Position numbers and translations under genes: made by a program. A stretch of 64,000 nucleotides of DNA. It comes from Carcharhinus amblyrhynchos (lineage: Eukaryota). This document shows, in pieces, positions 2,350 through 52,669 of this stretch. Below the pieces are notes generated by a model. That model saw only the letters and a list, made by a program, of their open reading frames with translations, was not told the DNA's origin and ran no database searches. Position 1 is the first letter of the stretch. Every line of letters starts with the position of its first letter. Where the stretch lies: NCBI GenBank assembly GCA_965287045.1, contig OZ336885.1, positions 61,132,001-61,196,000 of the forward strand, in the 5' to 3' direction.

Positions 2350-2376
2350 CTTTCGTTTTGTCTTTTATTTCCTTTT
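2350..2376 (-). CDS. 27-nt phase-1 microexon EKEIKDKTK (left copy)
   Basis: aacag|AAAAGGAAATAAAAGACAAAACGAAAG|gtaagt. The paralog at 30508-30534 differs by one synonymous change. Confidence 0.78.
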
Positions 2377-3117
2377 CTGTTCATTTAGAGCAGGTTACAG
2401 AACTTAATATGAAATGTGTGTGGCGATTACACCTAACATACCTCGGGTTTTTGATTGTGGTGAAATATGCATTGAATATGAAGTAGCATCAACGAAACTT
2501 TATATGCGTAACGGAATCCAAATGACATTTCACACGTCTGTCTGCCAAAAAGAAAATGAGATCGAGTGCAGAATGATAATATTTGAACCAATGAATACAT
2601 GTTCGTTCCTGAGGGAGTCGATTTGAAACATCTTAGATGAAAATATGATGCTTTTTTCGATAAAAAAAGATGCTAGAGAGGGTCTAGATGATCTTCAGCT
2701 TTTGGCTGCTGAAGGCAAAACCAAGACTTTTGCAGCATTTAAAAGGCGAAATTATGAAAATCCCAGAATTTAAAACATGCTCACAATTCAATGTATTGTG
2801 AAGCAGAAAAAAGTCAGAGGTATGCAGAGATGAAGGCTTTGGGAAGAAAAAGAAAACATCTAAATTCATAGGTGTTGATGGACCAGGTGACAGTTTTACT
2901 ATTGAAGACAGAAAAAGTGGTGAAGCCGTGAGACTAGCAATCTTTCAAAACACCGACTGCGTCACAAGCATGATAGTGGTTGTTCTAGTTCACTCCACAG
3001 TTGGCATATATGAGAGTCTCAGCAGCCCAGTATCTCAGAATATGGCCAAAGTCATAAGCATGGAAATTAGCGGTATGACTTTGGTGGCTGACTCCTCCTA
3101 CTGAGTCACTATTTAAA

Positions 3118-3433
3118 GGCGGCACGGTAGCACGGCGTTTATCAGTGCTGCCTCACAGTGCCAGGGACACGGGTTCAACTCCAGCCTCGGGTCAGAGCCT
3201 GCCTGGATTTTACAAATTCTCCCCGTATCTGCATGGGTTTCCACCAGGTGCTCCGGTTTCCTCCCGCAGTCCAAAAATATGCGGGTTAGATTGACTGATA
3301 ATGCTGGATTGACACAAGTGTCAAGGGATTAGCAGGGCCAATCAGGGTCACGGGGATAGGAATTGGGTGGATTGTGGGGATGCAGACACGACGGGCCGAA
3401 CGGCCTCTTCTGTGCTGCAGCGATTCTTTGATT
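3118..3433 (+). mobile_element. tRNA-derived HE1/V-SINE-type SINE
   Basis: GGCGGCACGGTAGCAC head, GGGTTCAACTCC B-box, V-domain core GGTGCTCCGGTTTCCTCCC, and a CR1-like 3' end GGGCCGAACGGCCT. Confidence 0.88.
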
Positions 3434-3919
3434 GATGCCAGAACAAATTTATTATTGATGCCTCATCTTGCCATTAAGAATAATACAATTTTGCCAATGT
3501 TGCCTTGAAATGATTGGACTTCCAAAAGTTGTAGGGTTGGAATGTAGTCAGTTACTCATGATTGCTTTTGTCCAAAATCATTCGAAGATCTATTGGACGA
3601 CATTTCTTCCCATACAAGAACAGATGTCTGAAAAACAGTTTGATCAGCCTACAGATGAGATAGATAGATATTGACGTTGCAATTACGTAGAACATGTCTT
3701 TATGATGTTGGCATTACAATGCTGGCTAAAACCATACTGTGTGGATATATTCAGATATAGGTGCTATCTCTGTTTCCATCGATAATGACAATTTTACATC
3801 GAGTTTGCATATAAGAGAACATCATTTGAAGATAAATTTAGTTTCATTGTGCCAAACATTCGGTGCAACAATGGTCTGCACAGATATTTCAATAAGCCAC
3901 TCGAGGATTGCTTCCTCAC

Positions 3920-3955
3920 CTAATTCCTTCAGTGTACTCAGCTTTTCTTCATTCT
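3920..3955 (-). CDS. 36-nt phase-1 microexon ENEEKLSTLKEL (left copy)
   Basis: cttatttcag|AGAATG...GAATTAG|gtgagg. Paralog at 32060-32095. Confidence 0.8.
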
Positions 3956-6900
3956 CTGAAATAAGACGTCCATTCTTTATGATTTTCATGTATGTATTTT
4001 ACACAACCATAGCGAAAGGCAATTAACCAGTCACAGATATGTTAGCACTGTAGCTCTGGAAATGTTGGTCCAACTGAATGTTGCTCAATCTGAAGACTTT
4101 CTTTATTTCAATGCCCATCTCCTCTTTAGAGTCTGCAAACAATTCCCTGCTTATCACGATAAGTGACGTTGCTTCCAACGTAATTTCATGTCGTCACTCC
4201 AGTTAATGTCACGATAAACTTTGCTCCAACTGAGAACATTGTCACAGCTAAGTATTTCCATTTTAATAGAAATTGCAAGCATAATTAACATTTTGGCATT
4301 CGAAAAATAAAAAAAAGTTGGATTCTGATAAAAAGTCGGCATGATTTTATTCATAAATAAAGTCAGACAATTTCTTGTCCATCGACAGGATTGTCAGTAA
4401 TGTCGAAGGGCAAGTTTAATGCACTTATTAAATAACATCGTTTGAGGAGAGTGTTTCGAAGTGGAATTTATGCTGACATTAATAAGTTATGATTTTAATG
4501 AACCAAAACATAAAGCATCAAACAATTTTAGCAGAGACGACAGATATTAACGATTAATTAAATGTACTATATCAGATATGCATTTCTAACCTGCTCCGTA
4601 AATGGAATGCAGAATAAGAATTCATTGGAACAGGCTTATTTTACTGATTCACCAATTGCCTAGTAGTGTGATGCTGGTGTAGTGGTTTTTCAATTGTTTG
4701 GTCATCGACGCATGCGCTAGAGCGATATGTGATAATACAATTGTATTGCATGTTGATGTGTGTTTGTCGAGATGGGTGCTTTGCAGATAAATAAACTAAT
4801 TTCGGAGGCGAAGGCAATTCAATGAACATATGTTAGTCGTCTTCCAAAATACATTTTTGTTGGAACAATGTACACAACAAATTTCCAGGGACAGAGATGT
4901 CATGCGAAAAGTTAACGGTTGTTCCACTTCACATCCCCAATAAGCGCGATGAATATTTTGTGTCATTTGTCTTCATGTATCCATGACTAGCTTTTTTTAT
5001 TCAATTGCTTGATACAAACTCATCAGCCGGTTCGAGATCTGTGCATATAACATTAACAAAACAAAAAAAATGCAGTATAGTTAGCTATACTGCCCTTCAT
5101 GTCTGATTCATCAAACGGTGTAGTCATGATTTGGCGGGATATCTGATAATTTCTACTTTACCTACTGCGAGATTGACTGTCAGAACTAAAATTGTTGTGC
5201 GAACCTCACTTCTTGAGAACTTTGTCACAAGGTTTTAATTTCAAATTTGATCAACAGCACTGATAAATTAATGTCCATTGTCACACGCAGCAAACCAACT
5301 AATGCAGCGTCTCTCTTAATGGGAGAGCTGCGGATTTGACCAAAAATATTGCCAAAGTCCAGTGAATTAATACAGATTTTTATCACATTACACGCTTCAA
5401 CATTAAGTGATGCATCACACGTATACCAGTTGCCAAAATGTTCCGACGTATTTCAACTAATATACTCTTGAGATGCGTTATTTCCGTTTGGGCCATATGC
5501 AGTCCCTGCCAGTCTGTTGAACCACATTCGTTATTACATCGATGTGATTCTAGCTGAACTGGAGAACGTCAACAAGATTTTCCTTTACCTATCACCCAGC
5601 CAGGGGAAGGTGTCACATTAACAAAAGAGAATACACCATTTAGCGCACCTGCATTCATATGTGGAGAAGAATGCTGGCTTTATCAAAAACATTACACACT
5701 AAAATGAAATTATTTTCTAATATAACATTGAAACTTGTCTTGTGCGCTGTTGCATTGGTAGAATTGTGCATCCTCGTTCCACCTTTCCATCAAAGTAGCA
5801 GCAGATATATTTCAGTCGCTCAACAGAGAAAAGGGTCGTGGTCCCACCTCCTCTTCAAAAGGTATTCCTACTCGAGGAGAGTGGGCATTTATACTTTGGG
5901 ACCGGGTACTCTGAAAGAAAGAACAACCCTACAACATACTGAAAGGCGCTCCCAGAATTAAACATATGTCTACTCGTGATGATGAGTCGGCCCTTTAGGG
6001 TAGTATAACCTAAAACTGCAACCATAACATCTAATCGATCAACAATTATATTTTTCAAGATGAATATTTGGAATTGATACAACACTTAAGTGAGTGTTGC
6101 AGAATGCAACCCATAATCAGTCTTTTCATGAATTATGTTTAAATTATCTTGGCAAACCACAGTCAGCCCCACACCTGGAATTACATTTTTTTTTCGATTG
6201 CAATAAAGTCGGATAACCAACCCTGGGCAAACCAAGTGTCCGCAAATGCCTCGTCCGTTATTTAAATGGGTACTTGCCATGCTTTGATCCAGAGACCTTT
6301 GCTTCTGTTATTGTTTACAATAGAAGAAACATATTGCCCAATATTGAAATCTCTCGAAGCTGTTGACATTTCAGATCGCTAGGAAGCACTTTTTTATTTA
6401 AACCAAAGACAGATATGGATATGTCTGCCGATTGACATGTACGAACTTACATATTCGTGTTTTACACATGTTACGTGTTATCTATGCGTATGTCAGTAAG
6501 CAATTTTGTACACCGATACAAAGCGAAGTATCGAACAAACTAAGAGATCCAGTATTAAACAACAACTTGCACGAACACCTCATAGTCAATGGATAATTGA
6601 AATGCACCAATTAACTGTAATATTGCTGTTTCTTTGGGCATCAGAAAACACATTGTGAAGAATAAACATATCGAACGACAGGAGGAGAGGGGAGGGAGGG
6701 GAGCAAGGAATAAGAAAGAAATATAAAGAGAGAGAGAGAGCAACAACATCACGTTCCCCTTGATACTTCAGTGCACAAGTGTCAGTCGCTTGTGTACTTG
6801 CTTGTGCAAGCAATCTCGCTGGGCGGAACATAAAAAGAAATGCATCTAGGGGAGAGGAAGAGGCTTTCAGAATGTTTGCATTCTGCTTCTTGTTTTGCAG

Positions 6901-7009
6901 CATTTCTGCTGGGTCCCAAAAACTGTGTCCGCCCATTGTAACAAAGGTGTCACCATCATTTGGGAATTTGGTCGTCAAACTTGCTTTCGGTCATATGGAT
7001 CGGGTGTCA

Positions 7010-7437
7010 TGCCTTATGTGGATATTTTGAGGGAGCTAGGTTTTTTTCTCCTTAGAGATACGAAGGATGAGAGGTGACCTGATAGAATTGGATAAGATGT
7101 TGAGAGACATAGATTGGGCGGATTCTCAGAGGCTTTTTTTTTCCCCAGGGCTGCATTGGTTGCTACGAGAGGACACAGGTTTAAATGCTGGGGAGTAGGT
7201 CCAGAGGAGATATAAGGGGTATGTTTTTCAGTCAGAGGTTAGTGCGGAAGTGGAATACGCTGCCGTCGGTGGTGGTGGAGGCAAATTCGATAAGTTTTTT
7301 TCTTAAGAGACTTCTGTACGAGTACATTGGACTTAATATAATTGAGGGTTATAGGTAAACCTGGTAGATCGGGATATCATCGGCGCAACCTGTGGGCCGA
7401 ACGGCCTGTTTGTGTTGTCGATGTTTCTATGTTCTAC
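7010..7437 (+). mobile_element. Old CR1 3' fragment
   Basis: Degenerate LGLFSL..RRMRGDL / FFTQRVV region with a TTCTATGTTCTA tail. Shared with 35162-35587. Confidence 0.85.
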
Positions 7438-7837
7438 GAAAAAGTTCTACACAAACGTTTACTCATTCTTGAAAATGGCAGACCCCTTGACTAGCACTTC
7501 ACTCATGATTTCATGTGCCCACTTCTCCCAAATTTGACCGTCAGGTAATGCATTTCACAAAGCATTCTGAAGCCCTGATCTTGAAATAAGCGCATTGGAA
7601 AATCAAGATCCCTATATGGCGCCCTAAATACCGTTGCATTCTGACTTGGCAATTTTCCCCCATTCCTTCTCTGCATAGCGTAAAAATGTTCAATCTAACG
7701 AAAACCGATTTGAAAATGCACTGCATGGAATGGGACGAGTCATGTTGGCGAATCAACACTACGTTATCACTGAGTGACTGATATACTAAACAAAGTATGC
7801 ATCACGGTTATTGTTACAAGCTAGTCCTTGAACTAAC

Positions 7838-7864
7838 CAGCTCCAAGTACTCCGTTCTGTTCCG
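7838..7864 (-). CDS. 27-nt phase-1 microexon AEQNGVLGA (left copy; acceptor AAG)
   Basis: ctttccctcatttttctaag|...GGAGCTG|gttagt. The paralog has a CAG acceptor. The upstream intron is only 62 nt. Confidence 0.5.
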
Positions 7865-7926
7865 CTTAGAAAAATGAGGGAAAGTTGGATCTTAGGAAAA
7901 AAAATGTTTTATTGTTCTTGTCCGAC

Positions 7927-7962
7927 CTGCATCTTGCAGACGTTTCTTCGGAGTCGCAATTT
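7927..7962 (-). CDS. 36-nt phase-1 microexon EIATPKKRLQDA (left copy)
   Basis: tcttctccccag|AAATTG...GATGCAG|gtcgga. The paralog reads EIATLKKRLQDA. Confidence 0.7.
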
Positions 7963-8159
7963 CTGGGGAGAAGACGGATGAAACGAAACTGTTAACTAAT
8001 CCTCTGAAATGACAATAATGTTCAGCCTATCGTTGCTGCCTTGATCTTTTGTCAATTGTTTCAATTTCTTTCCGTTTCAGGAGTATACTCTATTTAATTT
8101 TTAGTCTATGGAAATTGACTTCACCAGCGTTATCCCACGTGCAGCATTTAAGGATAAAA

Positions 8160-9180
8160 AAAAACAAAGAACAAATGCAATTATAGCGCAGGAACAGGCA
8201 TTTCGGGCCTCCAAGCATGTTACCGTTGTGAACTAAAACCCCTACCCTTCCGGAAGCAATGTACCTTCATTCGCATCCTGGTCATGTATTTGTCCTGGCG
8301 CTTCTTAACAATCATTATCGTATCTGCTCCAAATTCAGGCCTGGCACGAATTCCAGTCATTCACAACCCTCCGTGTAAAATCAAACTTACACCTGCATCT
8401 CCTTTAAGCTTTGCCCCTTCACCCTTAAAATTATTACTCTGGGGAAAAAAATCGTTTTAATATCCGTACTGTCCATGTCCCTCATAATCCTATAGGCATC
8501 TGTCAGTTCGCCCATCAACCTCCATCTTTCTGGTCAGAACACATCAGTTTTTCTTGCAACATCTCCTCAGAGCTTTTGCCCTCCATACCAGGCGACATCT
8601 TGGAAAATATTTTCTGTAACTTCTCCAAAGCCTCCACAGCCTTCATGTATTGTGGCAACCAAAATTGAACACAATTTTCTATGTTTGGCCGAAATAGGGT
8701 GCTATAAAACTGCAATATGATTTGCCGATTTTTTTAACTCAATACCCCAGCCAATGAAGGCAAGCATAGGGTATGCCTTCTTGACTACCTTCTCCACCTT
8801 CGCTGCAATTCCAGTGATCTTTGTATTTGTCACCCAGACCCATTTGCTTACAAATACACTTAAGTGTTCTAACATTTACTAGATATTTCCCACCTGTATT
8901 AGACATCCCAAAACGCATTACCCCACATTTGTCCAGATTAAACTCGATCTGTCTCCTGTCCACCCAAGTTACCAATCTATCTATGTCTTGCCGTATCTTA
9001 CGACTATCCTCATTGCGAATCGCAATTCCAGCAACCTGTGTATCGTCCACAAACGTATTAATCAAGCCAGCTATATTTCCACCAAATCACTTATACATTT
9101 GTATTACAAACAGCCGTGACCCCAGCTGTGATGCATGAGAAACGCCAATAGCCATAAGCTTCCATTCCGAAATGCAATGT
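8160..9180 (-). mobile_element. Old degenerate CR1 ORF2 3' fragment
   Basis: Broken ORFs read FVDDTQV..QDIDRL..W..FNLDKC and YSTLFRPNIENCVQFW. Shared with 36207-37225. Confidence 0.9.
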
Positions 9181-9624
9181 TGGATGTCACAGAGAGATAA
9201 TCATGTTGTGGAGCAGCATAATATGTTGGTTTTATAGAACCGTCATTGGTAAGCAGGTACATATTTTTCTTACTCATCGGAATATTTTTCTACGTGTCGC
9301 CCATTAATAACAGACATTCAATTCGGTCAAATCAGTGTATTCAGATACAAATTGGTCCATTTGATAGGCTGTTGCTTGGTGGAATTTCACGTGCTGTCTT
9401 TGTAACTTATATTTGGAGCTGCCGGATATTGCGTGCACGTACATTTAAAACTGCATTTATAACGGGTATAATTGTATTGCTTGATGCTACTATATGCAAC
9501 AATTAAACGATATCTATGAATTTGAGCCTATTTATGTCAATGCAAGAGAATGAAGCAAGAGAGCATTTGATGCATTGCAACTGTACCAGCGGAGATCTCA
9601 AATCCATAGAAACCATAGAAATTA

Positions 9625-9955
9625 TCCATAGAAACCCTACACTGCAGAAAGAGCCCATTCGGCCCATCGAATCTGCACCGCCAACAATCCCACCCAGGCC
9701 CTATCTCCGCATTTTACCCACGAATCCCTCTGAACTACGCATCCCGGGACACTAGGGGGCAATTCAGACTGGCCAATCCACCTAACCCGCGCATCTTTGG
9801 ACTGTGGGAGGAAACCGGAGCACCTGGAGGAAACCCATGCAGACGTGGGGAGAATGTGCAAACTCTGCACAGACAGTGACCCGAGCTAGGAGTCGAATCC
9901 AGGTCCCTGGAGCTGTGAAACAACTGTACTAATCACTGTGCTACCGTGGCACTCC
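9625..9955 (-). mobile_element. HE1/V-SINE-type SINE
   Basis: Reverse complement of the GCCACGGTAGCACAGTG head and the GCTCCGGTTTCCTCCCACAGTCCAAAGA core. Confidence 0.9.
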
Positions 9956-12123
9956 GAATATATATAACATATATTCATACATAACAATGATCCGCGATGA
10001 CCACATTCATGCTATATGACTGCAAATCGAGAAGCCACCGTGCATAAACCAGATTCTGAGATTCTGAAATTGCAATCCAACAGCCGCATGTCTAGCATTT
10101 ATCTGAAGCAGTTACCGAACTTTGACGGGCTAAAGCGACTTGACAGTGCTAAGTGACAGATCAACATAAATGCAATGGCGGAGCGTTAGACATTCGTTCC
10201 AACGGCTGAGCTGTCGTTTAGTTTGGGTGGAGAGGTATGTTGTTCGGGTAGCTGAGTGAACAGAGTGAGAATCTGCGAATATATTGGAAGTGGGGTAAGC
10301 AAGATGAATTTGATTGCAATCCTGACGACTATAAGTTGCTCGATATAATGATATTAACGCAAGCTGAGATTGTCAGTCAGAAAATTGTATTGCATGCCAT
10401 GCCAGATAACTTGACGGTTTCGAAAAACTGCTTTCAAAATTGTTTTATCCCATATTCATGATAAACCACGATCTGCATGTTACTCCCTTAAATCTATCTG
10501 ACCTTCTAATTGTTAAGCAGAGGCCTTCTTGGTGATTCACCGGAAGAATTGCATGGACCAATTGAAGCTGCAATTTCAAGTTGTACCCATCCCTTATTTC
10601 TTTGTTGTTTTGACATCAACGTGTGATTGCATTTGTGATCATTGTCTCAGTGCGGGCAAGGCAGTAAAACAAGGAGCCCATGACATGTGTGACCAATCGG
10701 GACTCAGGACGTGCAATTGTTCCAGGGTGGGTGAAGTTCCAGGGCACATATATTTTCGGAGCACCAATGTTGCTTCTGCAAATTTGTTCCGAATGGAGAC
10801 ATGTTGTCTTCATTAAGTAATTCTTAACGGCACATGTTCAAAATATTCAGCGTCGAATACACAAAACAATTGCTGTTCATACCTTATTCTTGCTTTTCAT
10901 AAATGCACATTAGGAACTGAATCAGATATATTCCATCCATTTTTAACCCAATCAAATTCAATCTATCACAGACCTCCGATGAATTTTTGCACCATTCCAT
11001 ACCAATGAGGCGCAGCAAACATGCACGACATCAGAGATACGGAGGGAAAATATGACGTACACCATGCCGAAGCAAGATTGGCAACAGTTAAACAGCTGGA
11101 TCGTCATTTTGTTTTTTTTTACTAATGTTAAGCTCCCAACGCATGAACCTGCACATACACAGCATCCTTTTTTCTTCTTCACCAAATCTTATACAAATTT
11201 CGCAGCGCCAATACTACAGCGTGCAACAGTGAGAGTTGGGCAACTCCTTCCGCAAGCTTTAACATTTAACCAACAAATTGCAAACCTGTTATAGAAGAAA
11301 ATTGGCTTCCCATTCTCAGCCCTGAAAGACTAGATGTAAATTGTGGATGAGGCCTCTTGTGTCAGGGACTTGGAACTGGCAGTGGCGGTTTCTTTTTTTG
11401 TTTCCAAATGAACTTTTTTAAATATAACTTTCAAATCTTGAAGACGGACGCAATTTTAATTTCCCGGGATTATGAACTGTTGTTATTCTGACTTCGCAAT
11501 TTATCCTTGGGTTCCAGTTTGCCTTCTAATCATTATGTCTTTGAATGTTTTTTTTGTTAGAATAGTATCGCAAACAGGGCCGCTTTACTGGTCTACTGGC
11601 AACGAATCGTGTTGATTTTCTTATGTTCCTGATGCAAAATTGCAAATATAAACGTACGAGGCTGGCTGTGCTGTAATGTGTTAATTTAAGAAGTCATGTC
11701 ATAACTTATCTGGTGGAAAAGGCCGGCGAAGCCTTGGCATTCCTTTCATACTGGTCTCTAGAATGTCAAAGTCATGCTGTCCACTTTCAGCTGACAGCTG
11801 ATCACGGCTTGAATCATTCACCATCTCGACCTCCGAAACGGCAATCAATGGGCAGATTAAATAATAAAGATTCTACCAGGTTTTATCCATTCACATTATT
11901 CTACCTGCTTACGACATCTTCACAGTTTTCAGACATTGTTTCTTTCCAGCGTATTATAGAAATTGTTTTTATTGAAAGCGATGAATGCTAAACAATTTCT
12001 GTTTAGCTCTACGACTGGTTGCATGACGGGATGTGTCAAATCAACTGGCTGGAGTCCACAAGACAATTTTCATAAATTTGCACATACCAGACAAAGCAAA
12101 CAGGCACCGGTTTCATTGCTCAC

Positions 12124-12150
12124 CTGCATTTCTTTCACGGAGCTCATGGT
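12124..12150 (-). CDS. 27-nt phase-1 microexon DHELRERNA (left copy)
   Basis: ttttggttacgtgacag|ACCATG...AATGCAG|gtgagc. Paralog at 40212-40238. Confidence 0.78.
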
Positions 12151-12528
12151 CTGTCACGTAACCAAAACCAAAATAAAAACTATTTGGAAAAACATGTTCA
12201 CATTTCAACAACCATAAGTTATGTAAAACCTTGCAATACGCTCAATACTTTAACATTATGCACAGCTGATGCCCGTGCCTCCACCTATCGAATGGTTGAG
12301 TTTCATTTTCCGCCTAGTTAGGATACCTTTGCAGTGAGTGCATAATTTTCAACATCCAACAATGTTCTGTACTGTCGTATTATTGTCTATAAAAGGTTAT
12401 GTGATACAGAGTGGAATCTGTGAGTGATTAAAACTAAACTATCAAAAATGCACGTTTCTTTGTCAAACAATGTGCAATAGTGTTGTTATGATCATTTTCT
12501 GGAATATTTAATGTTATCAACTACTCAC

Positions 12529-12555
12529 CATCAACAGGGAGTTTACTTTCCAGCG
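12529..12555 (-). CDS. 27-nt phase-1 microexon ALESKLPVD (left copy; acceptor AAG)
   Basis: tatgtttaag|CGCTGG...GTTGATG|gtgagt. The paralog has a TAG acceptor. Confidence 0.65.
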
Positions 12556-12668
12556 CTTAAACATAGACGTAGTGGTACTTGATCATGACCGTGATTTTCA
12601 AAGCTTTATACAATTGCATATGATGAAAATCAACATAGAATGCTCGTCATTAAAGACAGATTACAGAC

Positions 12669-12695
12669 CTTTCACTTTATCTTTTAACCTTTTTT
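12669..12695 (-). CDS. 27-nt phase-1 microexon EKRLKDKVK (left copy)
   Basis: ttgttgttcccag|AAAAAAGG...GTGAAAG|gtctgt. Resembles the EKEIKDKTK exon. Confidence 0.72.
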
Positions 12696-13617
12696 CTGGG
12701 AACAACAACAATTCAATTAATTATTTTAATGGAATCTTAAACCATTCGTCGCAGTTTATTTTTCAGTTCGTTCTTATGACATTCAAGTCAATTCAAAACG
12801 CAGCTAAGATCCTGTGGTTGAATTCCCTTGCGTGCCAAGATTCTTTGTGGTACCAATTAATTCCATTGTTGCAAATAGCTGCCTGTTCATGGGCAAGGTG
12901 TTTAGAGAAACTAAGTATGTGATTTATGATTACGACCATATGAATACGAGGTAAAAGTAAAGCGTCCGATCTGTCCAGGCTGTTCCAAAAATGCAACAGT
13001 TTCGTGATTGATCAGACTGTGATCGCAACACCATAACCCACATTCACCTTAAATAAGTTGATTTACTGATCATTTGATTTTATGCTGCGGCCTAAATGTT
13101 TAATGTTGCAGACTGAACTTATGGACAGGAACAAAGAAAACTTTTAATTTCTCAATAATGGCGGGCTGTTTTTTTTATTTTAACTCGTTATTTATGTTGC
13201 TCCGACAGGAGGAGCTTGAATCATCCACCCACTTATTTCAACTAAGGGTGATACATTTTTCAGTAAGTTTACTTTTCATCCTTGATATTTGCAAAGTATC
13301 CCATCCTGTTTGGTCAATATTTGTAGGTAAGATGACAAAACCGGTTTAACTATCCGTCCAATAGCCTTGTATGAACGGCATCACATGATTGAAGGTTTTC
13401 TTCGGTCAAGAGACCAAGGTTCTGCACTCTACTCCAGATGTATTCATTCAAATGCACTGTGCAAGTATGGGTAAAATATACAGTATATTTGATGAGCATT
13501 ACAATTCCCAGGAAATAACATTGTTGCATTTGCCCCCTGAATCGCTTTGTGTTTCTCCGGAACATACATATATATACTTATATATTTCTGGTTCATGAAC
13601 GAAGGCCCCAAACCTAT

Positions 13618-40211: not shown

Positions 40212-40238
40212 CTGCATTTTTTTCACGGAGCTCATGGT
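40212..40238 (-). CDS. 27-nt phase-1 microexon DHELREKNA (right copy)
   Basis: gttacgtgacag|ACCATG...AATGCAG|gtgagc. Confidence 0.8.
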
Positions 40239-40613: not shown

Positions 40614-40640
40614 CATCAACAGGGGATTTACTTTCCAGCG
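40614..40640 (-). CDS. 27-nt phase-1 microexon ALESKSPVD (right copy)
   Basis: ttcgtttatgttttag|CGCTGG...GTTGATG|gtgagt. Confidence 0.78.
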
Positions 40641-40753
40641 CTAAAACATAAACGAAGTGGTATTTGATCAATACTGTGATTTTCAAAGGTTTATACAATT
40701 GCATATGATGAAAATCAACATAGAATGCTCGTCATTAAAGACAGATTACAGAC

Positions 40754-40780
40754 CATTCACTTTATCTTTTAACCTTTTTT
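40754..40780 (-). CDS. 27-nt phase-1 microexon EKRLKDKVN (right copy)
   Basis: ttgttgtttaccag|AAAAAAGG...GTGAATG|gtctgt (weak donor). Confidence 0.68.
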
Positions 40781-43700
40781 CTGGTAAACAACAACAATTC
40801 AATTAATTATTTTAATGGAATCTTAAGCCATTCGTCGCAGTTTATTTTTCAGTTCGTTCTTATGACATTCAAGTCAATTCAAAACGCAGCCAAGATCCAG
40901 TGGTTGAATTCCCTTGCGTGCCAAAATTCTTTGTCGTAACAATTAATTCTATTGTTGCAAACAGCTGCCTGTTGCTGGGCAAGGTGTTCAGAGAAACTAA
41001 CTATGTGATTTATGATTACGACCACATGAATACGAGGTAAAAGTAGAGCTTTCGATCTGTCCAGGCTGTTCCGCAAATGCAACATTTTCGTGATTGATCA
41101 GACTGTGATCGCAACACCATAACCCACATTCACCTTAAATAATTTGATTTACTGATCATATGATTTTATGCTGCAGCCTATATGTTTAATGTTGCAGTCT
41201 TAACTTATGGACAGCAACAAAGAAAACTTTTACTTTCTCTATAATGGCGGGCTTTTTTTTATTTTAACTACTTATTTACGTTGCTCCGACAGGAGGAGCT
41301 TGAATCATCCACCCACTTAATTTACCTGAGAGTTATACATTTTTCAGTATGTTTACTTTTCATCCTTTATATTTGCAAAGTATTCCATCCTGTTTGGTCA
41401 ATGTTTATAGGTAAGATGACAAACCCGGTTTAACTATCCGTCCAATAGCCTTGTATGAACTGCATCACATGATTGAAGGTTTTCTTCGGTCAAGAGCCCA
41501 AGGTTCTACACTCTACTCCAGATGTATTCACCCAAATGCACTGTGCAAGTACGGGTAAAATGTACAGTATATTTGATGAGCATGACAATTCCCAGGAAAT
41601 AACATTGTTGCAACTGCCCTCCGAATCGCTTTGTGTTTCTGCAGAACATACATATATATTTATATATTTCTGGTTCATGGACCAAGGCTCCAAACCTATC
41701 ATAGGTCTTGTCAGCGCCAGTGGGCGAAACGACCACTACGGACTCAGGGTGAAGTTCAATAACGGCACCGCTTTATTTTCTTTTACGTCGACGGAGAAGC
41801 ACAGTCAGGACATACAATCACACTGTCCCGAATTCGCTCTGACGGTCCCTCGCAGCGGGCTATAGTAACACCTGAACTTCGGTACAGTATGCGATTCAAA
41901 TGTTGATTCTTTGATTACAGTATTCGACCTCAGCCGTCCTGTCTCGATGTTTTCAAGTGTTGAGGAAATTGTTTTAAGTGTTTGTTAATTGTTTTGTCTG
42001 ATTGGTTATTAATGGTCTAGAACCTCTGGGGTTTGAACCATAGATGTGCCGTTGATCTCAAAAGAGGTTTGAGGGGCCAGGAACGTTTCCTTAGCTATGC
42101 TAATTTTAGGTGTCTCCATGGGTTGTTTGACTGTTTTTGAAGTGCTGAATTTGATGGAGTGGGGATTTAGTTCCTGTAGGTGCCATCTTGTCCAGTTTCC
42201 TTTGTGTGCTAGCCCTCACTTGCGTTCTAAAAGCATGCTCTTGCATGCTAATCGGTGTCTGTTACTTTGTGATTTTTAGTGGAGAGGCTCTGAGTGTAAC
42301 TTTAGTTTGCGTACATATTGTGCGCCCAATTTCATAAAATTTGTTGACCGATAACAGTCTGAATCTTAGGAACGTTCTTCATTTAATGAAGCTGCCCGTT
42401 CTCTAAATATTGCTGTTGACAGGTTGACAATAGCAAATTTCTACAAAGTATATGCCATCTTTCTTCTTCGCCAAACAATTTCAACATTTTTGTCCCTTTC
42501 AAGAAGACATGCGAGTTCTTCGAAACTTCGGTTCCCCTCTGTCGCTTTTTCGTCCGTGAACGTAACAACACACTTTGAACCCCTTCATGAAATCATTCAT
42601 ACAAAGTGTGCATGCTTCAAGGCTCAGCATAGATCCCTGCAATGGACCCCTAAAGTCATCATGTGAAAACAGGCATTACCAGTTTCTGCTTGATCGCTGT
42701 TTCCTGTTAGCTGAAAAATACTTTTCCATTTCAAGCATGTTACTCTTGCACTGCGATATATTATTTTGCACTTCTATTGAAGATCAGGATCTTGCGAGCG
42801 ATTTATGTTCATCTATTTCAATATTTTTCATTGACTTCATTTTTCAAAATTGTTCATTAATTCCTTTAAAGCACCCCAAACATAATAGCACATATTTAAC
42901 ATCTCACTGAATCATATTGCCTCTGACTTTTTTTTTAATTCTGTTAGTATCCTTCTCGGACCAGATCAATAACAAAATCCAAATATTTCACAGTGATAGA
43001 TGAAAAGTTAACTGTCATGTAATTTGAAATTCTCTGGCTCTTTTTTTATTTGCTGCGGAGATTTCATGTCCACAGTATTGCAATTTTGTGTGATTATTCC
43101 GTTCTTTTTGGAACATTAAAAAAAAGTAGCACTACCTCAATGACTATATGCTTACAGACGGGATGACTGAGTCCAGCAGAGAGTGTGCAATTGTCACAAC
43201 TTTTACTTTTCAGATAATCTTTTGAGTCCCATTAGCCGGCGATTTTAAATGTTTTGTTTCGTTCCCTTTCACATTGTGATACAGAGTTGTATGTGGAGAG
43301 TTGCATTTAGATTGCAGACAGAACCAAAGTGCCTATTTGTACCATCTGCCGTCGCCCCTTTTTCAATCATTGATTCACCACTCTCATCGTTTCTCTGCCG
43401 TCATTTTCGCCTCTTTTTTAATGTTTCCCGATTTTCTGTTCTGCTTTCGTTTGTAAGGAATTATGTACGTTTATCCCATCTGATACTACATGAAGTTCCT
43501 TAGTTATCAACGCGTGCTGCACCCTTCACCTAGACTATTACTTGATCACTGAAATGTGTCTGTCTTGCATTACATATCTCTTGAAATGGACATTAATACG
43601 TATTAAAGCTCGTAAGTATTCAATTTGGTCGCCAGAACAAAATTATTGATGGATATTGTGAACACTAAGGCTAAGTTCCTAAATTTGATCTATTCCGCAT

Positions 43701-44309
43701 GCCTTAGTCTTCCATCACGAATATTATCCATTTTAACGTTCTCTTTGAGTTGTTCTTGTTCGCCAATCCAACATGCATTTCAGTGCCACGGCATTGACGA
43801 TACACGAGTTATTTTAATTTCGTGACTTAAACTCCCGGTCGGGGCTTTTAAGGAAAAGCTCCATGAAAGTCAAAATGTGCTATGCACATCGATTATCCTT
43901 TTAACCATTTTCGAGAAATTTGTTAAAATAACACCAACAAATTGAGTAAACGATTTCATATCTCGAAATCGGTGCTGGCTATGCAGAAATGGATCATGAT
44001 TACCAATTTGCTGGCAGAGCATTTTTAGACTGGCCCGTACCACCCCTCTACATTTATCTGACGAATCACCCTAAATTAAGTAGCTCAGTACACAAAGTGA
44101 CAATTAGGAATGACCAATCCACTTAGTATGAAATTATTTGGCCTATAATTGGAATCGGGAACAACTAATGAAACCTAAGCAGACAGGTGTTCTTGGACAG
44201 ATACCCCAGGAATGAATTGACCCCGTGAACAATGCAGGAACAATAACAACAACTCTTCCAAAATGCGACCATAATAACATTCATGTAATATTCTTGATAA
44301 CAACGCTTT

Positions 44310-44597
44310 CAGTGAAAAGGAACCTTCGACCCATCCAGCCTGCACCGACCACAATCCCACCCAGGCCCTGTTCCACTTATTTTCCCTGCTCATCTCCTGA
44401 CATTATGTATCAAATTTGCATGGGCAATCAACCTAACTCTCGCATTGTTGGAGTTTGGGAGGAAATCGGAGCATCCAGTAGAAACTCACAGTGACACAGG
44501 AAGAATGTGCAACCACCACACAGAGAGTCACCCAAGGCAGGAACTGAACCGGGTCCATGGCACTGTGAGGCAGCAGTGCTAAGCACTGCGCTGCCTA
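44310..44597 (-). mobile_element. HE1/V-SINE-type SINE (paralog of 17260-17550)
   Basis: Same core motifs. Confidence 0.82.
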
Positions 44598-44785
44598 CCT
44601 CATTTTGCCACGGTGGCGGACTCGCATCGATAAAATAATTTAGTTTCGACTGATCAGGATGCAGTTTGAAATGCCAGCACTGAGCAAAATGCACACATTA
44701 AGATTATTGAGATATTCCATTAATCACGCGAGTATTCTATTAGCAATATCAATCTTTAAACTAGGTCATAATATATGCATCTTAC

Positions 44786-44821
44786 CTAATTCATTGAACA
44801 TTTGCAACTGGTTTTCGGCCT
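44786..44821 (-). CDS. 36-nt phase-1 microexon EAENQLQMFNEL (right copy)
   Basis: ttctcattcacttcag|AGGCCG...GAATTAG|gtaaga. Confidence 0.82.
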   Translation of the reverse strand, partial: RPKTSCKCSMN

Positions 44822-47800
44822 CTGAAGTGAATGAGAAATCATTTTTGATCTCACTTTGCTTGTGTTGCTGTCATTCGTTTGTACCTGTATGCACTTGTGG
44901 TCAAGGACGTTTGAACGCGCGCTTGAGGTAACTGATTGACGGCCCATTTGTCTCACTGCTGTGATAAAACAACAAACGAGATGATCTGTCAAGTCACAAG
45001 CTATCCAATTGGAAATCATTGCTAAATTCTGAGGGAACTTAAAAAATAAAGTCTTCCAAACGGAAGAGGATGCCTTTGTGTTTCTCTGTTTGAGCATAGG
45101 CAGCTGGGGTGGAGTGGGCGGCGGTGCGGTAACGTGAACTCGGCGGTTTTCAAATTCGTCTTCCTCCCGAGAGAAAACAATAATAAACAAAATGTGATAT
45201 TATTGGCGTGGTGGTGGGTTCAGTCTTCAATCATGATTAGGTGCTGCTGTTAGCCCTGTGATTCTTAATTACATACACAAGCCTCTCGTTGAAGCTAGTG
45301 TATTATGAATAATTAAACGCCGCAGGTAAATCATTGTCTCTGATGTAATGATAGACCGACATTTACCAAATAGATTTCTGAACGAAGATATCGGTGACTC
45401 TCATGTGTGTGTTTGAAATGCTTTAAGCCAACAATGCGTTCTTGAAGACAAATTCTGTTTACCAAATATGACGTAAATTCACAAGAAATTACTTCGATAT
45501 GTAATGGAAGCAACGTGATTCCGTTTCTATGTGGGCCGTTGCAAATAAAGGGAGTTCGACGAACCGGAGTTCCTGTCCCAAAAAAATTCTTGTGTGTGCA
45601 CATATTTCTAGCTGTGGTGAAACTGTCTAAGAAGTGTCAACATGCATACATTGTATCACAATTGTCTGAAGGCATTTAGAAGTCACAGAGATGAAATAAT
45701 TATTATTACCTTGTACTCCGTGATTTCGCAAAAATAATGTTATTTGTTGTTTTCGAAAAAGCGTTGGTCTTTCGTGTTATGTTTAACAATTAATTTATAT
45801 GGAAGAGAATAGTTGCGTCAAATAGTGTAGACATTAAGTCAACGGACAGCTTCACAATATTAAAGCGGGTATCAGAAATTACCAAATTAATTCATATGCA
45901 AGAACTGTTGTTGCATATCAAAGAGCTAATTTCTCAATATGTATGTTACAAAATATTAACCTTCATAAATTTGCCGTAATGAACTTGGCAACTCAAAAAA
46001 TGCCCATCTGATGTTCAGCCACAACTTTCCACAGCATTTCAGTTAAAACGAGGTTTTAAAGCAGTCCTTTTTTAAAAGAAAAGGTCCCATCAAGGATTCC
46101 TGCCTCTTCTTCTGCGTGATCATCACTTTCAGAGGTGTTGCTGTCTGCTAGTAAATTTCTTCCATCTCATCATTCTTCAGCCTCTTCCACTACAGATACA
46201 GAATCAATCACACTTTGTGTTATTATTTCTGGAAGGAGTTGCATTGTCAACTGGTGTTTTGCTATGAAATTGCAGTGCTTTACTCGCCTAGGTACACTAC
46301 TGAATAAGCAAAAATCAAAACTGTCTCGCTGTTCAGCCATGGTAGAACTGCATACCAAACGGCCCAATTCGCCCTGGTTCCTCCTCTGTTTCCAGCTTTC
46401 CAGTGTATAAACCCATCGCTCCTAGGTCGACGTGTAATGATATGGAAATATGCCTTGCCCATTTAAGTCATATATGAGGCGAAAGTGTTTTTCACTAAGC
46501 GGTCGTTTGTCTTTGCAAATATGTTTCTGACAAGTTTGTGCCAACCTATTCCTTGTAAACCAGTCTGAGTTTGACAGGTTCTTGGTCAGCAAAGGTGTGA
46601 CGCCATATCGGGCAGAGGCTGAGTTCAGATGTATGCTTAATATCAGATCCGTGAATGTTAGTGAATTGCGGCACGGGTCTGAATAGCTAAATGACCACAT
46701 CCAGCCCCCTGTTCCCTTGGATTTTCAAATGACCATTTAATGGCCTTCTCCATTATAATGCACTGTGAGACGCGCACAGCACCCTGAATGCGACAACACG
46801 CATTCCTGTTTTTATTACGATTGCAGTGAGTCATGTCTTGGATGTGCTGTCCTTGTTACACTTCACTCTGCGTGTTCTTCTGTAGGGAGCAACGGTTTGA
46901 GTGTGGTCATTGTGCTATGGGAAAATTCAGTGCAACGTGATGTGCATGATCTAACAGTGCCTTCGTTGTAAGAAATGGAGAACGATTTGAAAGTTTAGCT
47001 TCCTGTGGCATATGCATGCTTTTCTTGTTTTAGAATTCGACTGATGCCCACCAGGTTCCATAGCGGTTTTCAGCTAAGTACATATAAGGCGCTTTAAGGG
47101 AGAATAGGCGTGCACAAAGGACAAGGAAACAAAGTTGCACCAGGTAACGCCTACCTTGCAACATCGTGTTTTGAGGCAAATAAGAAGAATACAATGCAAA
47201 TGACACAGTGGTGCAAGTAAAAATGTAAATAATGATCGCCAAATATTTCATGAAATGGTAACAATTAACAAATAGAAGAAGCAAGAGAAAGGTGTACATA
47301 ATAAAAACAATTCCATCATTGGCTGCCAATGCATATTAAACGGAAGGGGAAATTGAAGATGTAGAAGTTGGACGTGGAAAACAAAACTTCGGAATTGTGT
47401 GACGCATGAAATCGAAGAATAAACTCCACGGATATATACAAAAACTACACTGAGCTTTTTTTTTATCGGAATAAAGACAATCTATAAATGACGCACAATG
47501 CGATGATGCGCCACGGATATGTTTCACTGGAAACATATTGGGCTTTAAATTGGGAACTCAAAAAAAAAACACACTTTTTTAAATAAATGTGTCTAGAGAT
47601 GCCAACATCATGGTGGGGTGTTTCACGAAAAGATAAGTTGAGGAGGAACAACTTCCAGCGAAGTTATCAAGTTGGACCTATCCTTTGCAACATCTAGTAG
47701 CTTGGCTCAGATAAAACGTGAACAATACAATACGCTTGATACAATATCAGTCATTGTCATTGATATGAATATTAATGGTGGTTAGTGAAGATGTTTGCAG

Positions 47801-48226
47801 CAATTTTGCGAGAAGATTGAAATGCTCTTGTTGGACACTGCACCGAGACCCATTTCTCAATCGTGTTTTCCAGTGAACATCCAATTAAGTGTTCATAGCT
47901 ATTGGTGTGACAACTCAGTCAATACAGATGGACAGAAAGGAACACTGAAGTCACGTCATGGTTACTGATAGAGACTGACGTCCCCTGAATGCATTGATTC
48001 ATTAAATGTATCTGCAGGAGACATTAATATTGGCAATGACGAATATTTTGGTACAGAATAACGGTTTCTCACGTGGCTCAAAAATTAATCCCGTAGTTGC
48101 ACATCGAAATTGTGAGACAACGTGAGATGTGTTCCAATGCAAAAACGGGGTGGGACAACCATTTCGTCTCACTATTTGTACTTCGATGGAGATTGGATAA
48201 CAAGGACAGCATCAGTATTGCTAGAG

Positions 48227-48530
48227 TGGCATTGTGCCACAGCCGCTAGTAATGCTGCCTTACAGCGCCAGTTACCCGGATTAAATTCCCGGCTTGGATT
48301 AATGCATGGTGTTTGCACGTTATCTCTGTGATTGCTTGGGTTTCCTCGGATGCTCCCGTTACCCCCCCGCCCCCGGTGCGAGATGATAGCCTGTCCATGC
48401 CAATTATTCCCTTTGTGCCGGGGGACTGCTAGGGTAAATCCATGCGGTTATGAGTTAGTACCTCCGTTCGATAGGTCGGCTCAGACCCGATAGGCCGAAT
48501 GGCCTCTTGCTGCAGTAAATGATTCTATGG
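48227..48530 (+). mobile_element. HE1/V-SINE-type SINE (paralog of 21170-21470)
   Basis: Same degenerate head and tail. Confidence 0.78.
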
Positions 48531-51299
48531 CATAATCTCATGGCTTCGGCACTTCAAGAACGGCAATGATATTCTTCATTCTACCGAAATGAAACGTGTT
48601 CCTGTAAGTACACTTGTGAATTGGACGTGATCGTGAGGGAGTTGCATGACGGACGGGAATGGAAGAACCATCCGGTGACAGTACTGCCATATAGTAGCAT
48701 GTCATGTTACGGGAATGGTAGCATAATGGTGAACTGCGTCCTTCCATGACTGAAGTTTGCTCCAACGTATCTATTGCTGGACTGTATGCCAGAACATTTG
48801 GCTCCCCCATCGTGGATGAGACAGTTTGCCGTGAAACTGAACTTTGCATCAGCTTTTGTTTCAGGGACTGCAGTATTTGATGTGCTTACAGAGAAAGCAT
48901 ATTATCAAAGCAAGATTGAAAAACTTCGTTCCAAAATATATTAACCTCCAGGATATATCGAAATTATCAGGACATCATGGGGAGATATTCAATCACTCAG
49001 AGCTAAACAATATTGCCAACCCAAGTTAAACCATGGGGGACATGGACAATATGCTGCACAGTCAAAATACTGGCTGGGGTTTTACCCCCGCCCACGACAG
49101 GAATCGAAAAGCGCGAGGAAAGCTTCATGGAAAGGTCTGTTGACCAGAAACGGGATTTTACGGACGTGGGATAGTGGGTGCCTCAGTTGGGAATTAACAG
49201 GAAGTCCGCAGCCGTTCTAATGCGTCAATCAAAGAACGTATTCACTTTTGAAGATGCCAACGCGTTTGTTCCCAGTCAATTCTGATGAGAAGAACGGGGT
49301 GTCGCATTTAACATTATGAAATCACCCGCGGTTGACCGGACGCGTTGAATCCTGATCCAAGGTATTTACTTTCAGATTCAGAGGGAGGCCATTTTGCAAT
49401 GAATTAGCTACTCCTTTTTTTGAAGAAATATAAATATTTAATACGCCATATAAACATTATTTCTAACATCTTGATTCCAGTGATTTATTTCCTTACCGAT
49501 AAGACAATTGCATTAGTTTTTTTTTGAAGCTGCTTTTGCTTTATTGTGAAATGTTGCGCCAGACTGCTCTATTGCAGAAAGATCCATTTCAAGAATGTAC
49601 AATGAGTGATGATAAGACAAGGAACAAGTATTCCAATGGAAATATGTATTTAAGACTTGGAGTAACATAGGCGATCAAACGGCAACTCTCTGGGATAGGA
49701 AAAATTCAGAGAGTATCACAAAGTACAACATTGACACAGAATGAAAAAAAAGGCATAAAGTCAGCAATTATAAATTATACATTTTTTTTTCCTGAAATTG
49801 GCAGATATGCAAACCTCCGTATGGGCACATTGGCTGTCTTAATATCAAGAGTAATCGTACTGAGAAAACGGGGAAAAAAATCAAATAAATAAAATAAGTT
49901 GTGTGTGAAGTATAACCTGACAACGTCGTAAATGATGAAATGACAAAGCAAAGTTCAGAAGGGCCGAGGCAGAACGCTGAATTGCAAGAAACTTGCACAT
50001 AATAGGTTAGTCTGTACAAGGATTGCAAGTTTGTGATATAAAACACGAAGGTGTACCAAAGTATATCGAGTTTCTCCATTGTGCAGTAAAGAAGAGGAAA
50101 TGTGTGTGTGCATTAACGACAGCTTGAATTTGACATACCAAAATGTCGCAGAACTTATAAGATTTGCAATTAGGAACTTATAAGATTTGCAACGAAATGT
50201 GAATTGGTACCAAATGGAACGGCTTGATGCAATAATGTTCAAATATTTTTACTTTGGCTTTGACTGGAAAGTTGATTTGCCTCTGAGTAATCTGAATAAT
50301 GACATAAACCTGAATCAACTGTTTGGAGCTGGTTCAAAAGAGAGACATGCCAGGTCGTTAGATGAGTTAGTAGGGATCTATCTCTTGTATAAATTGTCGA
50401 GGCGTTGCTATTTGTATTGCAACAAGAAATAAAAAGAAGAAAAATATGGTCGTTTGCAAATGATAGGACATTTTGGCAGGGAGGGTGTTTGGCAAGCATT
50501 TGACACGCACTGAAACAAGAAAATATATATTTAAAGAAGTATGAAATTGTCAACATTCATTTTCCACACAAACGTTTGCTGCAAAGCAGACAAGCTAACT
50601 GAAAAGGGACACAATTTGACATCATGAACTCTCTCAAAATGCATTCTGCACATCTGTCCGCGAAATACATTACGTAGTTAATTTTGCGGAGTGAAATCCT
50701 TGTGGAGGCGAAAGAATAGTTAACGTAATTTGGAAGATTCTGTGATCCTGCATTTTTAGCGCTACAGTACCTGGAATATGAAAAAAAAGGTTTCATAGCC
50801 TAAAATATGGTACTGTGTCATGTTTTTTTTAATAATTTAGCCAGCAATTGGCCGTTTAGTGACTGCAGAACAGACACATAGCCGCGTCTACATTTCTATA
50901 GACTGCGTGCCTATATATAGCCCCGATCTTGTAAATATTCCTGCATCACTCGTGTCGTATTTAGCCCTTGCCGTAATAAAGCAACGAAAATTCAGACATT
51001 CGTGTACATTTTGATTAAACAAGGCATGAGAATACCAGAAATGTGCCCAGCATTCGACTTGGATCCTCACGACTGTGTAGGTCGACCACAAACGTGCGCA
51101 TTACACCACCGGTTGTTTGCCAAAAGTATATGGAGACTGTTGAAATATTATACTAAGATTTGAATCTTTTTTTTCAATATCAAGACATATTTTGCGCTGC
51201 AAATACACAATGACTGTACCACTCAAACACGTGTTTGGTTGCTTGATGTGAAAATGACGCTCACATTTCAAGGGACAGCATTTGTTTTGCGGCGCTAAC

Positions 51300-51326
51300 C
51301 TTGTTCTGTCAGCATTAGTTTTCTTT
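51300..51326 (-). CDS. 27-nt phase-1 microexon ERKLMLTEQ (right copy)
   Basis: gtttttcacag|AAAGAAAAC...GAACAAG|gttagc. Confidence 0.78.
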
Positions 51327-52639
51327 CTGTGAAAAACATTAATGAGGCAGACCATAGAAAATTACATACATGTGGCGACACAATCTTTTTTATTATTATT
51401 ATAACTACCCTCTTTTGGCTAAATGGAAATTAAGTTGTACTCCTTTGTGTCTGGTCAATTCAGTAAAACCCACTTCACTTTATATAAAATAATGAATCCA
51501 CCCATCATGTTTAGAATATGCCCTGCAAACTTTCTCTATCATCCATTAAGTCTTTGGACGAAAACTTCAATATGTTTCATATTTCGGCAATTGTCAAGTT
51601 CTGAATTACCAAACGCCAATTTTCAGCTGCTGACTGAATAACCATTATTTGGTGGGATGCAGGATATCAGGCAATTCGTATCAATAATCAATATTTTCAA
51701 AAAAACAAGCCTCAACACGTTTGCATTGCCATTGCACGTTGCAGATCTAATCAAAACAATCCTGAACAACCATTTCTATTTAAATAATTCAATTGAAAGT
51801 TACGTCACCTGGAAAGGTTTGTGCGTCTCACGAAATTAAGAATAATGCTTTTTTTATTGATGGCACATTACTTCGCCAGTTGACTTATTTCATAAAACAT
51901 TTGTTATCGCTTAGTCCATTTAACTTCAGTTGTGTTAAGAAGTTAACAGGTCAGTTCAGCTGTTCTATTTCATAACGGTCGTCCGGAAGTTCACAATTCT
52001 TCAGTCTGTCATCTGCAATGTTGAACATGCCGCCTTTTCACCATTGCCCCTGTTCACGGTTGCAAATCTAACCTGTCAAAGGATCAAAGACGCACACTCG
52101 CCGCTGTCTCTTTTCATATTCCACGGACTTCAAATGTACTCTCATTGTCCCGTGGGCTTCTGCGTGATCTGGCCATCCATGCACTCAGCGTTTTTCACAA
52201 CCTCATAAACAGACAATGATTAACGTAATTTGGCCGATTTGCATTCGACACGATTTCCTAACAAAAAAAAATCCAAGTTACGATTATTTATGTCCTTGAA
52301 TAATCTAAAAAATGCTTCCCATCATTGATGGTATACTCATTAGTGTGCATGTATTATAATATTCTGCTTTATGTTATGATATAATATTATTGAAATATCA
52401 AATTCCCTATTATGTTGGCACTGCTGCTATTTGCATGAAAATATAAACTATGGACATCACTTTCAGCATTTTTTATCCGGACATTTGTAGCTTCCTTAGA
52501 TAACTCTTAGCTGTGTTAATAACTTTTACCTTGTAATGCAGACAACATTTTAGCACACCTTCTTTGTCTGTGTTACAATACACGTAGTCGGGACCAATTT
52601 AGTCCCAATTTAACATAAACAAGTTGTGTTACCACTAAC

Positions 52640-52669
52640 CTGCCTCTTGTAGTTTATTTTTCAAATCGT
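52640..52669 (-). CDS. 30-nt phase-1 microexon DDLKNKLQEA (42 nt, VIHS-DDL..., with the upstream AG)
   Basis: ttttttttgcag-ttattcactcag|ACGATT...GAGGCAG|gttagt. Confidence 0.75.

Follow-up and report, generated by a model that had tools for sequence, protein, structure and literature searches.

Microexons of the window and the surrounding array

The window analysed here, a 64,000-nt stretch of the Carcharhinus amblyrhynchos genome (C16:61,132,001–61,196,000, C16 being the chromosome that carries it), lies in its whole length (1..64000, minus strand) inside a 1.07-Mb array of microexons. The segments are probably internal coding exons of one giant gene, which would encode a coiled-coil rod with a terminal B30.2 domain. 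The DNA examined comprised 1.43 contiguous Mb (C16 60.932–62.360 Mb) and samples beyond it. Units lying between AG and GT were scanned on both strands, and a trained profile later added two exon pairs, 40780/12695 and 36011/7962, which the scan had missed at first.

The original prediction had described 22 minus-strand segments of 27, 30 or 36 nt between AG and GT, all ending in G and free of stops when joined. All 22 were recovered as described, each with its final G, and joining them in a script produced 663 nt (220 codons) with no stop. They form ten duplicated pairs and two singles (29705 and 27720). The prediction had also proposed a comparison with shuffled and plus-strand sequence, and its outcome agreed with the claim: splice-site scores alone identified 18 candidates of 27 or 36 nt on the minus strand of the window against 4 on the plus strand, and 100 dinucleotide shuffles of the window contained 4.1 ± 2.0 such candidates (maximum 10). 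Tandem Repeats Finder and the list of open reading frames gave no trace of a microexon gene in the window.

The upstream end of the array was found at C16 62,153,633, ca. 0.96 Mb above the end of the window. The leave-one-out profile detected 183 minus-strand microexon calls in the 1.07 Mb, altogether 1,881 residues, with a median spacing of 3.0 kb. These included 79 calls of 27 nt, 78 of 36 nt and 26 of other lengths (six of 21 nt and three of 24 nt). At threshold 4 the same profile gave 87 + 87 calls on the minus strand versus 0 + 1 on the plus strand. When only splice-site scores were used over the 1.07 Mb, the 27-nt candidates numbered 69 on the minus and 14 on the plus strand and the 36-nt candidates 76 and 15, respectively. 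The frame of these 145 minus-strand candidates was open in phase 1 in 128, in phase 0 in 52 and in phase 2 in 81 cases, and 134 of them ended in G. A count over 664 kb was similarly divided (27 nt, 51 minus versus 3 plus; 36 nt, 50 versus 10), other lengths being represented by about nine each. The prediction of "at least 22" exons was thus correct as to the exons present, but the array is about eight times larger and reaches past the window.

The array grows by tandem duplication of DNA, as exemplified by the repeat of 27–29 kb within the window. The flanking duplicate DNA differs at 7.8% of the aligned bases (2012/25,658), with 121 gap openings. The ten exon pairs differ at 11 of 300 nt (P = 0.0025 against the surrounding duplicate), these pairs having been chosen for keeping exon signals; a different first set of ten pairs differed at 16 of 312 nt (P = 0.04). 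Fragments of reverse transcriptase, which we take from their motifs to be of the long interspersed nuclear element (LINE) type, were present at 389–2138 and 13616–14655 only in the lower copy, and the offset of the duplication therefore shifts from 29.9 to 28.1 and further to 27.0 kb. The duplicated segments and the microexons of the window are the following, partner exons being named by their higher coordinate:

26043..53104, upper copy of the intragenic tandem duplication (ca. 27–29 kb), with 12 of the 22 exons; self-BLAST, 87.6–92.6% identity in five blocks
1..26037, lower copy, starting ca. 3 kb below the window (about -3047)
56811..56840, minus strand, additional microexon of 30 nt, beyond the range of the original prediction
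52640..52669, minus strand, microexon of 30 nt (42 nt from the stronger acceptor 52681), upper copy, pairs with 25591
51300..51326, minus strand, microexon of 27 nt, upper copy, pairs with 24256
44786..44821, minus strand, microexon of 36 nt, upper copy, pairs with 17774
40754..40780, minus strand, microexon of 27 nt with a weak donor, upper copy, pairs with 12695
40614..40640, minus strand, microexon candidate of 27 nt with a strong donor, off the coil profile, upper copy, pairs with 12555
40212..40238, minus strand, microexon of 27 nt, upper copy, pairs with 12150
35976..36011, minus strand, microexon of 36 nt, upper copy, pairs with 7962
35888..35914, minus strand, microexon candidate of 27 nt, 61 nt past the preceding exon, off the coil profile, pairs with 7864
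32060..32095, minus strand, microexon of 36 nt, upper copy, pairs with 3955
30508..30534, minus strand, microexon of 27 nt, upper copy, pairs with 2376
29670..29705, minus strand, microexon of 36 nt, duplicate ca. 180 nt below the first base of the window
27694..27720, minus strand, microexon of 27 nt, duplicate ca. 1.9 kb below the window
25562..25591, minus strand, microexon of 30 nt (42 nt from acceptor 25603), lower copy, pairs with 52669
24230..24256, minus strand, microexon of 27 nt, lower copy, pairs with 51326
17739..17774, minus strand, microexon of 36 nt, same sequence as 44821, lower copy, pairs with 44821
12669..12695, minus strand, microexon of 27 nt, lower copy, pairs with 40780
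12529..12555, minus strand, microexon candidate of 27 nt with a weakened acceptor, lower copy, pairs with 40640
12124..12150, minus strand, microexon of 27 nt, lower copy, pairs with 40238
7927..7962, minus strand, microexon of 36 nt with a Leu-to-Pro change at a core position, lower copy, pairs with 36011
7838..7864, minus strand, microexon candidate of 27 nt with a weakened acceptor, lower copy, pairs with 35914
3920..3955, minus strand, microexon of 36 nt, lower copy, pairs with 32095
2350..2376, minus strand, microexon of 27 nt, lower copy, pairs with 30534

For the "30-nt" exons 52669 and 25591, the acceptor located 12 nt upstream scored higher (6.3 and 7.0 versus -0.1 and -2.2), extending both to 42 nt. 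The pairs 40640/12555 and 35914/7864 had coil-profile scores below 2, and their lower copies have a weaker AAG acceptor. Weaker phase-1 candidates off the coil profile were also seen at 62911–62946 (36 nt), 60367–60396 (30 nt) and, as a duplicated 24-nt unit, at 42680–42703 and 15637–15660; these are possible linker exons. Near the upstream end of the array, at C16 62.059–62.098 Mb, six consecutive exons measure 21 nt, a length of one heptad that is classic for the tails of BG and butyrophilins.

The terminal B30.2 exon and its relatives

The terminal B30.2/PRY-SPRY exon was detected at C16 ca. 61,084,200–61,084,720, minus strand, 47 kb below the window (SPRY, E 5.7e-17). It has a phase-1 acceptor and an open frame with a stop, followed ca. 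235 nt further on by AATAAA, and the 1.43 Mb contain no further B30.2 exon. The minus-strand microexons very probably join it.

Altogether six close B30.2 exons are present on C16, the other five at 60.45, 63.07, 63.15, 63.74 and 66.44 Mb; these five show 37–46% identity and are all open with phase-1 acceptors. Two more on C9 make the family one of eight members in this genome. Near C16 62.217 Mb the microexons switch to the plus strand and head towards the B30.2 exon at 63.07 Mb, so that the two arrays form a head-to-head pair. In DNA untouched by training, the profile of the first array made 68 calls on the strand of the family B30.2 exons and none on the opposite strand; a true butyrophilin locus, over 60 kb, gave no calls. 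On C9, eight predicted exons match a catshark protein in order, and the 9-residue isoform cassette of that protein falls exactly between two of them.

Several diverged tandem copies (83–86% identity) with exon candidates of 42–45 nt were observed inside the plus-strand paralogue at C16 62.277–62.336 Mb; they are another intragenic amplification. Two minus-strand microexon calls were made at C16 64.60 Mb; the B30.2 exon at 63.74 Mb is 870 kb below them, which suggests that this paralogue is also of near megabase length. The conventional butyrophilin that served as the control is located on C46 (605,000–665,000), has IgV, IgC (immunoglobulin variable and constant), transmembrane, 33- and 27-nt and B30.2 exons, and belongs to a group of similar genes clustered on C46 and C53.

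A HMMER search produced 2,543 matches, of which the best 150 were inspected and their names looked up. A quick tree of 47 rows was constructed with Shimodaira–Hasegawa-like approximate likelihood ratio test (SH-aLRT) support and without bootstrap, ten isoform or duplicate rows and the lower-scoring matches being left out. The six C16 domains and their database relatives formed one clade of 14 rows (SH-aLRT 100), and the butyrophilin B30.2 of this genome fell outside it. The clade has a Trp-Asn motif of its own in the alignment, which the C16 domain shares. Among the best 150 of the 2,543 matches, the named members all come from cartilaginous fishes:

XP_042192744.1, Callorhinchus (chimaera), 1,697 residues, "nuclear-pore anchor-like"
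XP_038668997.1 and XP_038672306-10, Scyliorhinus (catshark)
XP_069775384-90 (including XP_069775384.1), Narcine
XP_055510696.1, Leucoraja (skate)
XP_078422387.1, Cetorhinus

Members also carry the automatic names "TRIM39-like", "TRIM58", "TRIM69-like" and "A33-like", and these names are misleading. The chimaera model consists of a long heptad rod and the B30.2 of the clade, and SPRY was the sole Pfam family in all six database relatives scanned. Most of the database models look 5'-partial. Annotated isoforms are set apart by blocks of 9 residues (three cases) or of 7 or 6 residues; isoform models of this kind generally rest on RNA reads. By its predicted terminal domain, the array gene belongs to this chondrichthyan clade of coil-plus-B30.2 proteins.

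The original prediction had proposed a poorly annotated coiled coil of cartilaginous fishes, built of probably real exons and with a length set by exon number, and this part holds. Its view of the protein as unrecognised and unannotated was right about the poor annotation and incomplete otherwise, as a B30.2/SPRY end and database relatives were found. Literature searches, with most subscription papers outside their coverage, found no description of the proteins of the clade or of their function, and word-index protein searches returned only one unrelated fish protein and two already known. One "A33-like" protein, possibly a member of the clade, is listed from shark skin in the part of one study covered here (PMC10707392).

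The predicted protein and alternative explanations

One 36-nt and one 27-nt exon together make 63 nt, i.e. 21 residues or three heptads, and the two lengths alternate in 104 of the 138 adjacent pairs. Hydrophobic residues occupy positions 1, 4, 8 and 11 of the 36-mer and position 3 of the 27-mer, and 128 of the 182 exon junctions carry Glu. In the array model, hydrophobic autocorrelation has its maxima at 7, 14, 21 and 28; the chimaera protein shows those at 7, 14 and 21 and another at 26. In the middle part of the array, 26 of the 51 36-mers have Cys at core position 4. The structure predicted for the skate member includes long helices and a B30.2 fold at moderate confidence (mean pLDDT, predicted local distance difference test, 65.9), with TRIM7, TRIM20 and BTN3A1 as the best Foldseek matches.

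Splicing of the microexons into a transcript is likely. A transcript of ca. 180 units of 27 and 36 nt would encode roughly 1,900 residues of coiled coil, a rod that at a rise of 0.15 nm per residue would be ca. 280 nm long. The rod would self-associate via its Leu core, possibly locked as a pair by Cys at core positions, and would carry B30.2 binding domains at its end. Such a protein would work like a butyrophilin or TRIM protein reduced to its coil and B30.2, without the head and with an elongated stalk, and could serve as a spacer or scaffold that lends avidity to binding by B30.2. As all exons are of phase 1-1 and a multiple of three, exon duplication and skipping would alter the length of the rod in frame.

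The search for a head or first exon covered several exon types. The butyrophilin IgC (C2-set_3) profile gave 35 matches among 87 scored candidates and the butyrophilin IgV query 60 among 89, none of either on C16. Local tblastn for an immunoglobulin exon over the 1.43 Mb reached E 0.03 at best, a very diverged V exon farther off being possible, and a general V-set search, in which 150 of 1,794 candidates were scored, was swamped by antigen-receptor-like genes and cannot rule out a diverged V exon. Pfam analysis of 150 of the 156 open frames in two upstream gaps detected no immunoglobulin, RING or B-box domain, its six matches all being below the family cut-offs, and a RING motif pattern was not found in 664 kb. 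The transmembrane-exon scan recovered the control exon of the C46 butyrophilin; in three upstream gaps (64, 49 and 90 kb) its yield was a CA-repeat artefact on the minus strand and, on the plus strand, two weak candidates. Short Met-Ser starts were few and at chance level. A single-copy candidate for a signal-peptide first exon, at C16 62,193,785, was rejected, as its donor G is altered in a relative diverged by ca. 5% (3/3 runs, one sample). A hydrophobic exon candidate of 96 nt, in phase 1 and with an ATG, was observed on the plus strand at C16 62,168,553, 49 kb upstream of the plus-strand array; its acceptor is weak, and it does not exceed chance. The gene quite probably has no immunoglobulin, transmembrane or RING head, and the encoded protein may rather be intracellular than not.

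According to the parts of the sources covered, butyrophilins have a few very short heptad exons between the membrane segment and B30.2 (PMC6790196), and BG tails consist of 13–36 exons of 21 or 24 nt, their number varying by gene, in proteins with an immunoglobulin V domain (PMC4046983). A butyrophilin survey of jawed vertebrates reports variable heptad numbers, giant forms without immunoglobulin domains being unmentioned in the main-text parts covered (PMC12841164). The array gene resembles butyrophilins in the short heptad exons preceding a terminal B30.2, to which they are predicted to be spliced; the butyrophilin of this same genome has 33- and 27-nt exons before its B30.2, and BTN3A1 is the best PDB sequence match of the array's B30.2 (E 1.1e-21). 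It differs from them in having ca. 180 such exons instead of a few, in the three-heptad unit of 36 + 27 nt, in that no IgV, IgC or transmembrane exon was found, and in the separate Trp-Asn clade of its B30.2.

Chicken BG, which has a transmembrane segment and is not known to carry a B30.2, likewise has a long coiled tail built of many tiny exons. Compared to it, the array has five times more exons and a B30.2, no immunoglobulin or transmembrane exon was found, and 157 of the 183 calls are of 27 or 36 nt instead of 21 or 24. TRIM proteins with PRY-SPRY (TRIM21, TRIM39, pyrin) share the order of coiled coil and B30.2 and have similar PDB sequence and fold scores, but TRIM coils are short and encoded by few longer exons, and neither RING nor B-box was found in the upstream frames of the array gene or in the six relatives. 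The affinity to the chondrichthyan coil-plus-B30.2 proteins covers the B30.2 clade, the heptad rod and isoforms with differences of 6, 7 or 9 residues. As no immunoglobulin, transmembrane, RING or B-box exon was found, the predicted gene falls outside the standard butyrophilin, BG and TRIM types, though it shares their logic of stalk plus B30.2. The original prediction had rightly pointed to BG and butyrophilin tails as coils made of microexons. Its parallel with triadin, a protein with an N-terminal transmembrane anchor, a KEKE luminal tail and no known B30.2, was unsupported: the array leads to a B30.2 exon, and no credible transmembrane exon was found on the minus strand of the three upstream gaps.

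Several observations weigh against a single giant gene with a coiled-coil rod and B30.2 end, and some of them favour other explanations. The 183-call gene model is approximate: ten of its calls lack the final G and one junction creates a stop, so it contains errors, and it misses likely exons. A first exon of the array gene was not identified in the DNA examined. The array model and the chimaera rod show 21–22% similarity, which has little proof value between low-complexity sequences. On C9, ca. seven other minus-strand matches with scores of at least 20 against the catshark protein do not follow its order, and ca. ten plus-strand candidates in two regions reach 20 against one of two proteins. 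Eight of the changed codons in the exon pairs are non-synonymous and two synonymous, so the low pair divergence does not represent classic protein-level purifying selection; the original prediction gave the difference of 11/300 nt exactly, but its selection argument is weaker than stated. Since the changes are mostly non-synonymous and the lower copy has two weakened acceptors and one Leu-to-Pro change, the duplication shows growth of the array more than selection. Reads from four runs gave unspliced cover like that of genomic DNA and no spliced read, and are uninformative on expression. Together with three lower-copy exons that appear decayed, this could be taken to indicate that the segments arose as pseudo-exons by chance or are left over from a dead gene, which is extremely unlikely in view of the shuffle and strand controls, the open frames and phase-1 acceptors of the six C16 B30.2 exons, and the annotated relatives with exon-sized isoform differences.

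The exons may also be real and belong to several tandem genes, those of the window to a shorter gene (e.g. the last 100–330 kb) and those upstream to coil-only genes without B30.2, like BG tails. The array includes 13 gaps of at least 20 kb, any of which may conceal a gene end, and provirus-like insertions lie in and beside the 29-kb gap above the window. The blocks also differ in style, with Cys-bearing 36-mers in the middle and the six 21-nt exons at 62.06–62.10 Mb, and most database members have 130–460 residues, just one being long. This explanation appears doubtful, as strand and phase stay the same for 1.07 Mb without a second B30.2 exon, no convincing signal-peptide or start exon was found within the array, and a single family member of 1,697 residues is annotated in the chimaera. 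On a separate axis, the protein might be exported or membrane-anchored via a short first exon and form an extracellular fibre or stalk that is linked by disulphides and bears B30.2 at its tip. The core Cys of the mid-array 36-nt exons, the hydrophobic stretch beginning the chimaera and skate models and the plus-strand candidate at 62,168,553 would fit this. It is nevertheless unlikely: of the minus-strand candidates for a signal exon, the best has its donor G altered in the relative, as described above, N-glycosylation motifs show no enrichment (6 in 1,881 residues), a signal-like stretch is absent from the start of the Narcine and catshark models and of one chimaera model, and the control-validated transmembrane scan of the three upstream gaps gave only the artefact on the minus strand. 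The skate N-terminus, which ends in Leu-Pro before the first exon-like unit, resembles intron read-through at some C16 acceptors, and as proof of secretion it was set aside as such. A conventional butyrophilin or BG gene, with immunoglobulin and transmembrane exons missed or farther upstream, would agree with the butyrophilin layout of short heptad exons before B30.2 (PMC6790196, in the part covered), with the 33- and 27-nt exons of the C46 gene and with the BTN3A1 match, but the absence of C16 from the IgC and IgV matches and the negative Pfam and tblastn results make it very unlikely.

Returning to the giant gene with rod and B30.2, we slightly favour the whole 1.07-Mb span being one gene. 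If one transcript spans the array, it would represent a gene of ca. 1 Mb with roughly 190 exons, nearly all shorter than 40 nt, and would be among the most exon-rich vertebrate genes, of a kind that annotation pipelines break up and misname. It would offer a natural test of splicing long runs of microexons across introns of ca. 3 kb (median), would extend the heptad-exon design of butyrophilin and BG five-fold, separated from the immunoglobulin head, and would add to the immune or structural toolkit of cartilaginous fishes a B30.2 subfamily common to chimaera, sharks and rays. More tentatively, cartilaginous fishes could have an old family of headless B30.2 proteins encoded by megabase genes of up to ca. 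200 microexons, six of which would fill several megabases of one chromosome. Their rods, up to 300 nm long and tuned in heptad steps by exon duplication or skipping, would constitute a modular system of rulers or fibres that standard annotation has overlooked.

Other sequence features of the region

At window +66,000..+98,000, two insertions related to each other look like proviruses, with frames resembling gag, pol and env and with long direct repeats. Named by the appearance of their translations, they occupy the 29-kb array gap above the window and neighbouring gaps, and a related piece is present near window +377,000..+385,000. A diverged tandem repeat of ca. 1.85 kb is located at window -81,000..-76,500, in the gap without exons that separates the B30.2 exon from the next array.

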